Below are positions 8,922 through 27,897 of a stretch of DNA of 64,000 nucleotides, one piece after another; the stretch's first letter is position 1, and each line of letters opens with the position of its first letter. The notes beneath the pieces were generated by a model. That model ran no database searches. It saw only the letters and a program-made list of their open reading frames with translations, and was not told the DNA's origin. The position numbers were made by a program, and so were the translations under genes. The stretch comes from an uncultured Planctomycetota bacterium. GTDB lineage: Bacteria; Planctomycetota; PLA2; JAEUHO01. The DNA is taken from positions 896,001 to 960,000 of the forward strand of contig CAVVXN010000005.1 in NCBI GenBank assembly GCA_963752285.1, written 5' to 3'.

Positions 8922-9647
8922 TCACAGATACGGTGCAACGCGCTGAAAAGTATCTGTGTCGTCGAGCGCCTTGCGCGCATCACTGGCGAGATCTGCCAGA
9001 GTGCGCGCCAGATGGGCAGTGCGGCTTCTGTTGAGAGAGCGCAACTCTTCGGACGACCTGGCATCGCTGACAGCTGGCAAGTATGTAGACCGGGCCCACT
9101 CTCGGAACTCGAGCCAGCGCGTCACGAATATCCTCCGCACGGCAGCGGCTTCGCCCGAAGTTAGCGACGGCCCGTTCTTTTGAATCAAAGCCTGCCGATT
9201 GGCCCACACCGCTCGCAGATACTCGTTGACGTCATTGTCATGGAGACTAACGACAAGCGTCTGGAAGCGATCAGCGCTTTGGAAACTACGTGATGCCTCA
9301 TCGAAGAGCTCTGAGCTCGAGAACTGCGGAGCCGCATAGTGAGCCACTATAGCCTGTCTTGTATCCTCAACATCTCCAAGAGGGACATCATTGTGTTTCT
9401 CACTGAGGTCACGAACACGCTCCTGCAAATCCCTGATAGTACCTTCTCGAGCTGCCAGCTCCTGCCGCAGTGTTTGCACTTCACTGTCCGCTATAGCACA
9501 ACTTAGGTGCGGCTCGGACGGTGCTCGTACGTTCGGATGGTCGAGCGCCGGCACGCCCGGACGCGGTGCTGCACCACCGATCCAGAGCGCCCCTGCGCCG
9601 AGACCCAACAGGAAGCTCACAGCGGATGCGAGGAGTACCCTGCCCAT
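8922..9647 (-). CDS. Hypothetical N-terminally anchored protein with coiled coil and helical C-terminus
   Basis: 241 aa ORF, N-terminal hydrophobic helix (VLLASAVSFLLGLGAGALWI), heptad stretch EVQTLRQELAAREGTIRDLQERVRDL; ggag RBS upstream. Confidence 0.7.
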   Translation of the reverse strand: MGRVLLASAVSFLLGLGAGALWIGGAAPRPGVPALDHPNVRAPSEPHLSCAIADSEVQTLRQELAAREGTIRDLQERVRDLSEKHNDVPLGDVEDTRQAIVAHYAAPQFSSSELFDEASRSFQSADRFQTLVVSLHDNDVNEYLRAVWANRQALIQKNGPSLTSGEAAAVRRIFVTRWLEFREWARSTYLPAVSDARSSEELRSLNRSRTAHLARTLADLASDARKALDDTDTFQRVAPYL

Positions 9648-9838
9648 GGTTGCTCCCGATCATGGATTGGACGAGACGGACGTCACGGCCCTACCCACCC
9701 TGAATTCCACCGCGACAGCAATGGGGTACGAGCACTCCCCAATCGTGAAAGAGTACGTGACCGTTCCCGTGGAGGTTGCGTTTCCTGTGCCACCTGCCAT
9801 GCGTTGCGCAACCATGCAAAGTATCGCGGGATTCGCGC

Positions 9839-11240
9839 GGCGGAGCAACATTTCTTCTGTAAATCCGAATTGACGTGATCAGTCCTCGTGCCTCGGCAGG
9901 TACCTTCGTCCGGTCTCCCACTCCTCGCTGATCTCCATGAGCACCGCGCTCACGAGCCGGAGGAGGGATGCTTCGTTGGGGAAGAGCCGCGCCACTCGGG
10001 TGCGCCTCTTGATCTGCTGGTTCAGGTTCTCGACGCCGTTCGTCGTGCGCAGGCGCTTTCGCTGCGCCTCGGTGAGGCCGAGATCGAAGACGGTGAAGCC
10101 GTCCGGCACGCTCTCCTCGGCCCACGTTGCGAGGCGGGGGGCCGTGTCGCGCCAGGTGGCCACTGCGGCCGCGAGCTTCTCCGTCGCCTCGCGGCGCGTA
10201 CTGGCGTTGAACACGCCGCGCAGCAGGGCGGCGGCCTTGGCGCGGTCGGCGACATGGGGCACGTAGGCCTGGGCGTTCTGCTGCAGGTGGAACTGGCAGC
10301 GCTGCCAGGCCACGCCGGCGAAGCGCGCCGCGAGAGCCGCGCGAAGGCCCTCGTGGTCGTCGCTGGTGATCAGCTGGACCCCGTGCAGGCCGCGGGCCTG
10401 CAGCGACTCGAGGAACGTCCGCCAGTGAACCTCGGCTTCCGAGAGGCTCACGCTCACGCCCAGGATCTGCCGGTGCCCGTCCTGGGCCACACCGACCGCG
10501 ATCAGGACCGCGCAGTCCCGCACCGAACCGCTGTGGCGCACCTTCTCGTAGCGGGCGTCGAGGACCAGGTAGTCGAAGCGGTCCAGGGGGCGACAGCGCC
10601 ACGTCTCCAGCTCGGCGTCGATCTCCGCCGCCGCCCGCGACACCGCCGTCGAGCTGATCTCGAGCGTCCCGCACAGCTCCTGGGTGATGGAGGCCACGCG
10701 GCGGGTGGACACGCCCTGGACGTACATCTCGGCGACCGCCAGGCGCAGCGCCCGCTCCGAGCGCTGGCCGCGTTCGAGGCACTGCGGGTAGAACGGCTCG
10801 CCGTCCGGGACGCCGCGGACCTGGGGGACGTCCAGCGTGATTTTCCCCACCCGGGTGGCCACGGTCTTGGGCTTGAACCCGTTCGCGTGGCCGCGCCGGG
10901 ACGTGGACCGCTCGTACGGGGCGGCCCCCATGAAGGCGGCACGCTCGATCTTCATGACCTCGTTGAGCAGCACGCGGATCGCCTCGCCCATGCCGCTGAA
11001 GCCCTCTTCAGCGACCACTTCCAGAATCCGATCAATGGACGTAGCCTGCGGGTGGTGGGTCACGCCGGTTCCTCCTGCTTGGTTGGCACCTGCAGTTGGA
11101 TCGGCGCTGATCCGCCACCTCTTTCCCCCCGGCGCGCTCGCGCCGGGGCCCTCTCGCTTCCGCTCGCTACGCTCGCTGCAGCGAGAGGGCCCCGGCTCTT
11201 CCGGTCGGGGAGTCTTTTACAGAACGAACGTTACACCCCC
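9839..11240 (-). mobile_element. Complete IS256-family element
   Basis: Imperfect terminal IRs GGGGGTGTAACGTTCGTTCTGTAAA / GGCGGAGCAACATTTCTTCTGTAAA; 8-bp direct repeat attcgcgc at 9831-9838 and 11241-11248. Confidence 0.92.
9879..11063 (-). CDS. IS256 family transposase
   Basis: [72 protein letters not shown]. Confidence 0.95.
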   Translation of the reverse strand: MTHHPQATSIDRILEVVAEEGFSGMGEAIRVLLNEVMKIERAAFMGAAPYERSTSRRGHANGFKPKTVATRVGKITLDVPQVRGVPDGEPFYPQCLERGQRSERALRLAVAEMYVQGVSTRRVASITQELCGTLEISSTAVSRAAAEIDAELETWRCRPLDRFDYLVLDARYEKVRHSGSVRDCAVLIAVGVAQDGHRQILGVSVSLSEAEVHWRTFLESLQARGLHGVQLITSDDHEGLRAALAARFAGVAWQRCQFHLQQNAQAYVPHVADRAKAAALLRGVFNASTRREATEKLAAAVATWRDTAPRLATWAEESVPDGFTVFDLGLTEAQRKRLRTTNGVENLNQQIKRRTRVARLFPNEASLLRLVSAVLMEISEEWETGRRYLPRHED

Positions 11241-26021: not shown

Positions 26022-26029
26022 TTCCCAGG

Positions 26030-27793
26030 TTATTCCTTTCTCTGGAGACTGACATCAACGTCCACTATATCGCCTGGTGGGATCGTGAAGTCGACGTTGC
26101 CCGGCTCATATCCTGCATGAACCACGGAAACCCGGTAGGCGCCGCCCGCAGGGACTGCGTGTATGATCTCCTCCCGCCCGACAACATCCTCCAACTCGGA
26201 ATAGGGAACGGAGACCCTGCTGTTCCTGTCCACTTCCTCACCGCCAACACTCGTCAACTTCGTGTAGACTACAGATTCAGGCTGGATGTCACGAAATCCC
26301 CAGTCGGTCGCGATGTGCAGGCGGAAGCCCGTCACAGGTGGGAACCGCACAAGGACGCTTTCCGGTTGCTGGCTCTGAAGATCGACGGGAAACTCGTCGG
26401 ACGATCCCCAAGTTCCAGCATGCACCCTACCGGTGAGCAACCCTCGGGGCAACGGGCCATAGTGCCAGTGACCGTCTGTCTGGACACCCCAAGCCAGTAG
26501 GTCGTCGCGCCGTCCAGCGCTGTCATGCAGTACCAAGTAGCGGGCGCAACTCCTAGCGGGGGGTATGTCGCGCGAGGCCCACAGTTCAGTAACACTCAGG
26601 CCGGAACACCAGTCGTCCGGGCGGTGCAGGGTGAGCGGCACCTCGTCAGCGGTTGGATCGCGGACGTACTCGTCAGGCTTCCTGAGACGAAGTGTCGCTA
26701 TGACGGGCAGGTAGACCTCATCCGTGCTTGTCCAATGAATGAGAGCCTGCATGTGCGTGGGCGGCGCGGCGTCGTCGAAAAGGATGGCTTGGAGGATGGA
26801 AGGTACGCCCGGCCTGTAATAGGCGTTCAACATGCCAGTACTGCTGAAGATCACACGTCCGGTCAACAGGTCCGAGCGCGTCGACATGCCAGGTTCAGTG
26901 CCCCAAAACTCAATCCCAATCCCGTTGAGGGTTACAGGAAGCCGCGAGCGCGCGTCTACAGGCTCGAAACAGACGAGCCGCACGGGCTGGGCCACAACAT
27001 CGACCTCGTCCGCATTCTCTCCACGTGATTGCGCCCGAAGCGTGCTCCACCCGTCCGCATCTACTCGGATAAGGTACGGACCGGGCCCGACCCCCTCCGC
27101 TGTAAAGTCCCCCCGTTTGTCGGTGAGCGCCTTGGACCACCAGCCGTTCCCGAGCGGTAGAAGGCCGACGTCCGGCGCGTCGCGCCGTTGTGCGCGCGCG
27201 ATGACGACCACGTGAATGTCCGGGACCGGACCCCCCGAGGGAAGCCGAACCGTTCCGCGCACTTGCCTCCCGCGGCGCAGTTTGATAACGACAGGACCTA
27301 CGGGTACTGCGTTTGTGGTCGCGACGTGGACTTCGCCCATGAGGTAGCCGCTGGCGGCCGCGAGGACGCGAACCGGTCTGTCTTGCGGAGCACCGACCGT
27401 AGCGGAGCCGTGCGGGTCCGTGACTGCGCGCTGGATCACATCACGGTCCGTCATTCCCTGCCTTGGGGGGCTTGCCTCGAGCGCGACCTCTACGCTCGCG
27501 CCGGCTAGGGGGAGAGAGTGGGTGTCCTCGACACGCACGGTCAACAAGAGCATCCCTTGGACCCTTGGTTCGGAGGCGGGCGTCGACGCTCTCGGTTCTG
27601 GTACCCCGCCGGTACCATACAGGCGCGGCGGGGTACCGGGAATTACAGTAGGGCTCACACGCTGCACGGCGATGGGGCCGAATGTCCTGCGCGAGAGTGG
27701 CTTTTCAGAGAACGCCAGGTAGGCGCCCAAGGCGCCCAGAGCAGCGACGAGCGCAGCGACCCACACCCTCCTCTTGTTAGCTCCTCTGGCCAT
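26030..27793 (-). CDS. Membrane-anchored protein with carboxypeptidase-regulatory-like domains
   Basis: TM VWVAALVAALGALGAYLAF; PLAGASV..TDPHG..AASGY; VRGTVRLPSGGPV..TDKRGDFTAEGVGPGPYLIRVDADGW. Confidence 0.85.
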   Translation of the reverse strand: MARGANKRRVWVAALVAALGALGAYLAFSEKPLSRRTFGPIAVQRVSPTVIPGTPPRLYGTGGVPEPRASTPASEPRVQGMLLLTVRVEDTHSLPLAGASVEVALEASPPRQGMTDRDVIQRAVTDPHGSATVGAPQDRPVRVLAAASGYLMGEVHVATTNAVPVGPVVIKLRRGRQVRGTVRLPSGGPVPDIHVVVIARAQRRDAPDVGLLPLGNGWWSKALTDKRGDFTAEGVGPGPYLIRVDADGWSTLRAQSRGENADEVDVVAQPVRLVCFEPVDARSRLPVTLNGIGIEFWGTEPGMSTRSDLLTGRVIFSSTGMLNAYYRPGVPSILQAILFDDAAPPTHMQALIHWTSTDEVYLPVIATLRLRKPDEYVRDPTADEVPLTLHRPDDWCSGLSVTELWASRDIPPARSCARYLVLHDSAGRRDDLLAWGVQTDGHWHYGPLPRGLLTGRVHAGTWGSSDEFPVDLQSQQPESVLVRFPPVTGFRLHIATDWGFRDIQPESVVYTKLTSVGGEEVDRNSRVSVPYSELEDVVGREEIIHAVPAGGAYRVSVVHAGYEPGNVDFTIPPGDIVDVDVSLQRKE

Positions 27794-27897
27794 TCATCCT
27801 CCGCGCACGAAGGGTGCAGTCGGCGTGCAGAAGCTGACTGAACCGAAAACCTGCCCCAACGACCGAGTGCAGGGCCACAACGCTACGGACAGTCGCA

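Follow-up and report, generated by a model that had tools for sequence, protein, structure and literature searches.

In the methylamine dehydrogenase (mau) cluster, MauE and MauD mature MauA, a protein with 12 cysteines. That MauE is widespread as a general disulfide-forming enzyme is a very recent proposal, and a preprint reports that two MauE proteins, both distant from those described here, restored motility and PhoA activity in dsbB-null Escherichia coli, while CXC mutants did not (10.64898/2026.03.05.709764). According to the same preprint, either Cys of the CGC loop between transmembrane (TM) segments 3 and 4 is essential, a Phe-Gly pair is conserved after the CXC motif, and the predicted quinone site is lined by a Lys and a Glu that are likewise conserved. 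MauE is said there to act probably via a partner with a thioredoxin fold, and in 8.2% of MauE entries the two are fused (10.64898/2026.03.05.709764). Here we describe an island within a stretch of 64,000 nucleotides (the window; contig CAVVXN010000005.1, positions 896,001 to 960,000) from an uncultured Planctomycetota bacterium. In this island, genes for small exported, Cys-rich proteins (S), N-terminally anchored beta-sandwich proteins (L) and MauE-like membrane proteins (M) recur as tightly spaced cassettes, and the S-L-M module is conserved in the order to which the genome belongs.

The cassettes resemble the mau cluster in that a MauE-family protein is encoded beside a small exported client with about 12 cysteines, a layout for oxidative folding of a specific client. 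However, neither MauD (thioredoxin-fold) nor MauA, MauB or MauG was recognised among the 15 island proteins (Pfam, NCBIfam) or the 93 stop-to-stop open reading frames (ORFs) between the cassettes. The partner is an anchored beta-sandwich stalk, and the cassettes occur in several polymorphic copies per genome with variable gene order. M also keeps the CXC-[FL]-G loop, the Lys in TM1 and the Glu in TM2 of MauE, itself proposed as a DsbB analogue in the preprint (10.64898/2026.03.05.709764). In contrast, the DsbB-DsbA and VKOR-thioredoxin pathways are housekeeping, single-copy and run via a thioredoxin-fold carrier, whereas M is short, stand-alone or fused to L, and accessory. Literature searches on MauE combined with carboxypeptidase regulatory, DUF1573 or Planctomycet, and on Planctomycetes combined with cysteine-rich, gave listings and abstract openings with no description of an S-L-M module and no paper holding both MauE and DUF1573. 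The module therefore appears undescribed, in line with an earlier sequence-only reading of this stretch, which knew of no named system with this layout.

The S, L and M genes of the island

The island (about 8.4-28.7 kb) has a G+C content of 61-70%, compared to 72-79% on either flank. The G+C content at third codon positions (GC3) is 0.59-0.82 in island genes and 0.92-0.95 in the flanking MoaC, YifB-like and MscS-like genes. S1, L1 and M1 form a complete cassette (Table 1), with the coordinates, the cysteine count of S1 and the MauE identity of M1 that the sequence-only reading had given. S3-L3 was likewise found to be a pair lacking M, and L2 and L4 to be large genes standing alone with insertion sequence (IS) debris upstream of each. 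L3 and L4 are convergent with 230 bp between them. For L5 and M5 the proposed order, strand and spacing stood; M5 could be called MauE by motifs only, as it had no Pfam match. An S remnant that had been placed at 27794-27897 did not hold up, since this segment lies under a truncated ImmA/CapP-like ORF and no S-like feature was recognised in it. Gene order and tight spacing recur (gaps of 8-145 bp) despite high divergence, as had been noted; similarity between the paralogs is weak or nil, with best BLAST E-values of 0.001-0.009 among L3, L4 and L5. A tblastn search with all island proteins on the own genome revealed no paralogs outside the island.

The linkage of S, L and M in the window was found to be more than chance. 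The whole genome (4.64 Mb) contains 15 S-like ORFs by our heuristic, three matches to the M profile, four to Pfam MauE and 148 to CarboxypepD_reg. An L-like architecture alone is therefore cheap. By our own estimate, a given gene should have an S-like ORF that ends no more than 200 bp upstream of it with a frequency of ~3e-4, and an M gene within 50 bp downstream with ~2e-5; each was observed for two of the five L genes. The expectation per five genes, ~1e-3 and ~1e-4, respectively, is far exceeded.

M1 matched the MauE family (PF07291) with 35.5 bits (cut-off 27; E = 1.4e-8) and a leave-one-out M profile with E = 1.4e-9. The assignment of M5 rests on its size, its TM segments, a Lys in TM1 and a Glu in TM2 (both also present in M1), the CGCLG motif and its position. 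Among eight aligned M proteins, C-x(1-2)-C-[FL]-G was present in the TM3-TM4 loop of all eight (as CRSCFG in one), and the Lys and Glu in seven, the alignment being judged by eye. All 15 cassette MauE modules from other genomes, comprising 13 separate M proteins and two fusions, matched PF07291, and 12 of them reached the cut-off. Since M1 and M5 carry the features tied to activity in the preprint, M is by homology a putative disulfide-generating enzyme, and the neighbouring exported S protein with its 12-20 cysteines is the obvious client.

Two MauE-L fusions were found. L080 (G019:C64, 2910-5132) scored 27.5 bits against MauE (cut-off 27; residues 31-145) and 75.5 bits against CarboxypepD_reg, and L183 (G020:C117, 2957-4900) combines a MauE match of 26.3 bits with an L ectodomain. 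Both consist of four TM segments with the CxC loop, a fifth TM segment and then the L ectodomain, a predicted topology consistent with CxC loop and ectodomain both lying outside the cytoplasm. An S3-type gene (15 Cys in G019:C64, 12 Cys in G020:C117) precedes each fusion by a few bases to 65 bp. The two independent fusions are evidence that M and L act next to each other in the membrane.

The M gene of G016 (L063; G016:C12, 7774-8250) contains an in-frame TGA at 8074, at the position of the first CXC Cys (..APT-TGA-GCWG..), and its frame is open for about 55 codons past the TGA, through a TM4-like segment. In the same genome, SelB was found with 304.6 bits against a cut-off of 242, and tRNA-Sec with 70.7 bits against a gathering cut-off of 47. 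The hairpin after the UGA was no better than those of shuffled sequences (z = -1.03; 29 of 200 fold as well). The gene is either a selenocysteine MauE or carries a fresh nonsense mutation. An M1 match with an in-frame TGA in G257 was rejected as an out-of-frame artefact. The other MauE genes of the window's own genome, C2:471994-473019 (341 aa) and C2:401305-402222 (305 aa), encode a MauE module with CGCFG followed by a C-terminal domain of about 170 aa without assignment; the former adjoins large genes for multi-haem cytochrome-like proteins that are rich in CxxCH.

S proteins carry 12-20 cysteines (S1 has eight). S3 is the founding member of a new family of Cys-rich secreted proteins, here termed S3-type, judged from an alignment of S3 with 12 relatives in which 10 cysteines are invariant. 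Two C-x(3-5)-C ... C-x-C units and two further cysteines make up this framework, the final CxC lying at the very end of the protein, and the members have a signal peptide and two CxC pairs. We infer that S is exported and disulfide-bonded. The order searched comprised 40 genomes, which is also the whole class in the collection, and the phylum collection 401 genomes. The S3-type profile matched in nine of the 40 order genomes, all in the window's family, and in none of 384 phylum genomes outside that family, few candidates being scored per genome. An exhaustive HMMER search gave S3 one true homolog, 50% identical with the cysteines conserved, on short metagenomic assembly contigs; it is one of the 12 aligned relatives. 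An alignment of S3 with P0004 matched none of the JGI metagenome contigs, the ESM Atlas gave no usable match to S3, and neither the S profile nor M1 matched any PDB sequence. The AlphaFold2 (AF2) model of S3 (predicted local distance difference test, pLDDT, 63) is eight-stranded and all-beta; it had no Foldseek match at E <= 0.001, and the best VIA Z was 4.3. It is thus assigned to no known fold, which does not make the fold new. S1 was rejected as an S3-type member, as its CxxCxxC and KV[KE]CxCC motifs are common only to two proteins of the sister species G001. S1 and S3 matched no Pfam or NCBIfam family, and no NCBIfam model was matched above any cut-off among the 15 island proteins.

L1 to L5 are each anchored by a single TM helix at the N-terminus, and each contains one or more CarboxypepD_reg domains (PF13620) above the Pfam cut-off of 32.3 bits (38.5, 54.4, 47.1, 50.3, and 68.4 bits, respectively). 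L3, L4, and L5 are the seeds of the L3/4/5-type (530-740 aa, N-terminal TM, near full-length profile match), full-length members of which were found in most genera of the order. The cassette L proteins form a weak, near full-length similarity network with them; G016_L matched L4 with 27% over 602 aa (E = 5e-14) and G033_L matched L5 with 26% over 501 aa (E = 3e-14). These stalks are defined here as a new family. In the AF2 model of L4 (pLDDT 64), a TM helix (residues 8-36) is followed by a linker, which is disordered, and then by about five beta-sandwiches, and its best Foldseek matches (E = 1e-11 to 1e-5) were multi-domain stalks, namely Bacillus anthracis TIE, the pilins BcpA, SpaA, and SpaD, Cna B repeats and SdrD. 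L would accordingly resemble Gram-positive pilus shafts and stalks of the MSCRAMM type (microbial surface components recognizing adhesive matrix molecules) in being a string of CnaB/prealbumin-like sandwiches, and the known stalks present a tip protein. However, L is held by an N-terminal TM helix in a host that is probably diderm, and at template modelling scores as low as 0.13-0.19 the resemblance is one of domain type only. No sortase gene was noticed near the cassettes, and no search for LPXTG or isopeptide motifs was made.

Table 1. Features of the island, cassette genes first (positions in the window).
Feature	Position	Strand	Description
S1	12264-12761	+	165 aa with signal peptide and 8 Cys; motifs CxxCxxC, KVKCGCC
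L1	12907-14985	+	692 aa, N-terminal TM, PF13620 E = 1.5e-9; starts 145 bp after S1
M1	14995-15447	+	150 aa, MauE/DoxX family, CGCFG at 102-106; starts 9 bp after L1
L2	16871-18502	+	543 aa, N-anchored, C-terminal CarboxypepD_reg; orphan without S or M
S3	19089-19625	+	178 aa, exported (signal-peptide-like N-terminus), 12 Cys, C-terminal CNC
L3	19641-21401	+	586 aa, N-anchored beta-sandwich stalk; starts 15 bp after S3; no M downstream
L4	21631-23463	-	610 aa, L3/4/5-type stalk; without S or M
M5	25641-26021	-	126 aa membrane protein, CGCLG at 85-89; 8 bp after L5
L5	26030-27793	-	587 aa, L3/4/5-type stalk, three CarboxypepD_reg stretches
A	8922-9647	-	241 aa, N-terminally anchored (TM 3-24), mostly helical; only weak coiled-coil matches
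S0 3' part	9660-9838	-	stop at 9660, 12 bp before A
S0 5' part	11249-11627	-	hydrophobic, signal-peptide-like N-terminus
Intact IS256-family element	9839-11240	-	transposase 9879-11063, PF00872 E = 4.5e-100; imperfect terminal inverted repeats
IS256 5' fragment	16394-16798	-	abuts start of L2
IS debris	23600-25640		HTH_38, Mu-transposase C-terminal (IS21-like), rve core, IS256 3' fragments
Truncated helical ORF	24203-24780	-	C-terminal half of protein, in-frame fusion to IS21-like debris
IS256 fragment	25366-25675
Truncated ImmA/IrrE (M78) / CapP-like metallopeptidase ORF	27777-28394	-	HEAGH motif
IS256 5' fragment	28516-28739	+	right island border

Cassettes in the order and the phylum

The S-L-M neighborhood was found to recur in several genera of the same order, so that the absence of such a neighborhood from other genomes, by which the sequence-only reading would have been refuted, does not hold. 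S/L/M genes are present in G016, G015, G002, G022, G006, G381, G415, G009, G019, G020, G033, and G027, with the gene order S-L-M, S-M-L or M-S-L. The cassettes of G016, G015, and G002 were reached from MauE matches in the same family. The cassette of G016 has S (18 Cys), then L, then M, and in G015 at least five loci cover all three orders. In the sister species G001, two full S-L-M cassettes are located in a low-GC stretch elsewhere in the genome. In one of these, S is 43% identical to S1 and L is 30-31% identical to L1 over its full length; the S protein of the other carries the CxxCxxC and KV[KE]CxCC motifs of S1. Three core proteins compared between the window's genome (G000) and G001 are 68-69% identical, so that S1 and L1 diverge faster than core genes. 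The L1 type was detected in two of the 40 order genomes, with a full-length relative only in G001, and no relative was found for L2. A word-based search of L5, S1, and M1 against 5.8 billion proteins returned only the queries themselves, and M1 gave weak matches only in the 401 phylum genomes (best E = 5.7e-6).

To count the linkage we used a sample of 40 loci chosen solely by matches to an L profile, built from nine L3/4/5-type proteins and searched in all 40 order genomes, which yielded 36 L-type genes. S was counted if located within 1.3 kb on the same strand and called by our heuristic or the S profile, on our own gene calls. An S-like gene was found near 10 of the 36 and a separate M with the CxC motif near nine; with the two fusions, 11 have M. 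Both S and M accompany eight L-type genes, and S and/or M accompany 13. Six of these L-type genes could be followed upstream for less than 700 bp. In 13 cassettes the similarity matrices of S and L were correlated (Spearman 0.40, reached by five of 5000 permutations). This suggests that S-L pairs are inherited as units, with old lineages coexisting within genomes.

MauE is present in 236 of the 401 phylum genomes. At 20 loci around the strongest of these matches, small N-anchored neighbors and N-anchored neighbors of 330-490 aa recurred, and the eight neighbors scanned were rhodanese (4) and DUF1573 Ig-like (4) proteins. MauE was seen next to an N-anchored rhodanese protein and/or an N-anchored DUF1573 (HYDIN/VesB-like Ig) protein of 330-490 aa at L035, L040, L043, L044, L046, L052, and L053, and the DUF1573 neighbors often have a CGC motif of their own. 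These pairs resemble the cassettes in that the partner of MauE is a periplasmic protein with an N-terminal anchor. A variant S-DUF1573-MauE arrangement exists in G002, where L068 (G002:C61, 2230-5378) encodes S (133 aa, 14 Cys), a secreted, C-terminally anchored protein of 371 aa, an anchored DUF1573 protein and MauE (DCGC). The cassettes differ in that L is a multi-domain CarboxypepD_reg stalk of 550-700 aa rather than one Ig or rhodanese domain, and in the additional Cys-rich S gene. They are a variant of a broader theme of MauE with an anchored periplasmic protein. Downstream of the G002 variant lies a Ser/Thr-kinase-like ORF. L191 (G033:C63, 305-7102) has an L-type tandem with M directly upstream of the second L and a lone M 2.5 kb off; it belongs to the second family of the order, in which the S3-type gene was not detected.

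Proposed mechanism and alternative explanations

We propose that an envelope module of three parts, specific to the lineage, is present in the island in several copies of ancient divergence, and that in this module M oxidizes S and L docks S, a reading to which we give about an even chance. S would be a Sec-exported, all-beta small protein with five or six disulfides, and M a MauE-type, probably quinone-linked, disulfide-generating membrane enzyme analogous to DsbB. M would oxidize the neighboring S at the membrane, with or without a housekeeping thioredoxin-fold carrier in between. L would stand beside M as an inner-membrane-anchored string of about five transthyretin/CnaB-like beta-sandwiches, and the folded S would then most likely dock on its distal part, for docking or presentation. 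The module may serve as a fast-evolving surface, recognition, adhesion or antagonism device. The low GC3, the association with IS elements, the patchy distribution, the divergent multiple copies and the faster-than-core divergence fit an accessory module under diversifying pressure. On this reading the module is client-linked oxidative folding in a new form, with natural enzyme-stalk fusions. Altogether, the earlier observation was largely right: the recurrent cassette with a redox helper is upheld, the helper role being strengthened by the MauE preprint, by the CXC motif kept in divergent M proteins and by the two MauE-L fusions. Its interpretation is partly supported.

Several observations weigh against the proposed module. 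Most L-type genes in the sample (23 of 36) lack both S and M in their vicinity, and L can therefore function by itself; S-L pairs without M occur twice in the sample and once in the window (S3-L3). The S genes were detected by our own heuristic on our own gene calls, and many of the cassettes that seeded the profiles were found via M or L, which leaves the 36-gene sample as the only unbiased one. S1 and S3 have no BLAST similarity, and as far as their sequences tell, the S1-type and S3-type are without demonstrable kinship; L1 and L2 gave no match to the L3/4/5 profile. Statistically, M5 does not qualify as MauE, its leave-one-out E-value against the M profile being 0.13. A thioredoxin-fold partner is not encoded in the cassettes, and MauE is argued in the preprint to act normally via such a partner. 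Among 30 aligned L proteins no Cys is conserved, which argues that L is not a redox relay; it is linked to S by neighborhood only. The correlation of the S and L matrices is expected for any co-inherited genes and is no proof of contact. The AF2 models of S3 and L4 are both of middling confidence.

A bolder form of the proposal is a lineage-restricted, polymorphic envelope recognition system. Here each cassette would build a cognate pair, with S a disulfide-locked ligand or tip on its own stalk L, assembled in place by a private MauE (sometimes stalk-fused, one possibly with selenocysteine). Old lineages of cassettes would persist alongside each other and be reshuffled by IS elements, allowing discrimination of self from non-self, of prey or of phage. 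We put this forward tentatively and think it more probably wrong than right. Alternatively, the cassettes could provide disulfide-cross-linked building blocks of the envelope, with S structural, L a periplasmic spacer and M oxidizing inter-molecular cross-links. Planctomycete walls have been described as cystine-rich protein, and in chlamydiae, also of the Planctomycetes-Verrucomicrobia-Chlamydiae (PVC) bacteria, two Cys-rich envelope proteins, the small OmcA and the large OmcB, are co-transcribed in a system where disulfide chemistry is central; to our knowledge it includes no MauE. The 12-20 cysteines of S would suit such a role, as would the resemblance of L to stalk and S-layer-type beta-sandwich strings, including SlaB. 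However, the invariant, evenly spaced and even-numbered Cys framework fits intramolecular disulfides, and structural wall proteins would be expected to be conserved core proteins with high GC3, whereas these loci are low in GC3, IS-ridden and patchy (the S profile matching in nine of 40 order genomes). Nor is L Cys-rich like its chlamydial counterpart, with only 1-8 cysteines in the window and none conserved, and no sequence relation to OmcA/OmcB is shown. We consider this explanation unlikely.

The number of divergent cassettes per genome (at least five in G015, three to five in the window), the low-GC island with its IS elements and the low identity of S1 (43%) and L1 (30%) against core proteins (68-69%) would also suit an arms race between strains. 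S would then be a disulfide-stabilized, bacteriocin-like toxin, with M and/or L protecting the producer or aiding export; small multi-TM proteins beside secreted peptides are typical immunity genes. Yet M retains CXC-[FL]-G, Lys and Glu, the catalytic features of MauE, despite near-total divergence, which indicates an enzyme and not mere binding, and a stalk of 550-700 aa is atypical for an immunity protein. The cassettes lack toxin, peptidase-export and ATP-binding cassette (ABC) genes, there was no PADLOC or Pfam toxin match, and PADLOC matched none of the 10 S, L, M, and A proteins. The island was also compared with a bufferin-type locus for a RiPP (a peptide synthesized on ribosomes and modified after translation): the DoxX-family HvfX (NF050144) reached 13 bits against a cut-off of 80, and MNIO (DUF692) and a DUF2282-type precursor were not found among the island proteins and the ORFs between the cassettes. 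A secreted antimicrobial is quite improbable. M could instead serve L or oxidative folding in general, with S a passenger linked by shared mobility only; phylum MauE genes recur beside N-anchored rhodanese and DUF1573 proteins, and M-L pairs without S exist (L5-M5 in the window, L059 in G015, and in G033 and G027). This is hard to reconcile with the presence of S at eight of the 11 L genes having M, separate or fused, with S preceding both fusions so closely, with the co-divergence of S and L and with the absence from L of a conserved Cys for M to oxidize, and we regard it as very unlikely. Least credible of all is that the island has merely collected decaying ORFs of foreign origin and without function. 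It does have IS debris between nearly all cassettes, one gene freshly split by IS256, atypical GC3 and, in L5, S1, and M1, proteins without database relatives. Against this, the long ORFs of 543-692 aa are intact and have good ribosome-binding sites, GC3 exceeds the G+C content at second codon positions in every island gene, and Cys frameworks and catalytic motifs are conserved across genera.

If the proposed module is correct, its M proteins would be the first MauE copies outside methylamine dehydrogenase dedicated to particular Cys-rich clients, and the MauE-stalk fusions point to a physical partner of MauE without a thioredoxin fold. Two protein families, S3-type and L3/4/5-type, are newly defined together with a compact three-gene module, which could be expressed in E. 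coli dsbB mutants so that client specificity of oxidative folding becomes testable. The cassettes further qualify as a candidate variable surface system, in a group of uncultured bacteria that has hardly been studied.

Insertion sequences and other genes of the island

The sequence-only reading had taken an IS-split gene followed by the gene at 8922 for a variant cassette. The split was confirmed. The intact IS256-family element is flanked by an 8-bp target duplication, ATTCGCGC, which indicates a recent insertion into the small ORF S0. Membership of the cassettes was not, as S0 read across the insertion is a protein of 185 aa with three cysteines only and A is no beta-sandwich protein. S0 and A are a tightly spaced pair of a small exported and an anchored protein, without a Cys-rich S or a beta-sandwich L. 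Fragments related to the intact element, 83-93% identical, lie elsewhere in the own genome (C5:497-498 kb and 2196-2200 kb).

No tRNA genes were found in the window. Among sequencing data sets listed for 19000-23500, only soil-metagenome DNA appeared, at small shares, and no RNA. Within the IS debris, the HTH_38, Mu-transposase-C (IS21-like) and rve fragments are located at 23.8-25.5 kb. The truncated helical ORF had no family match, and kinship with A was rejected, as the two (24203-24820 for the former) show no similarity. The CapP model of PADLOC matched the ORF at 27777-28394 with E = 1.9e-6; homology of this ORF to the ImmA/CapP-like proteins ends near 27900, just short of L5, and a partner helix-turn-helix gene was not noticed. 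The IS256 fragments at 25366-25675 and 28516-28739 bracket L5-M5 and resemble the ends of two decayed direct copies.

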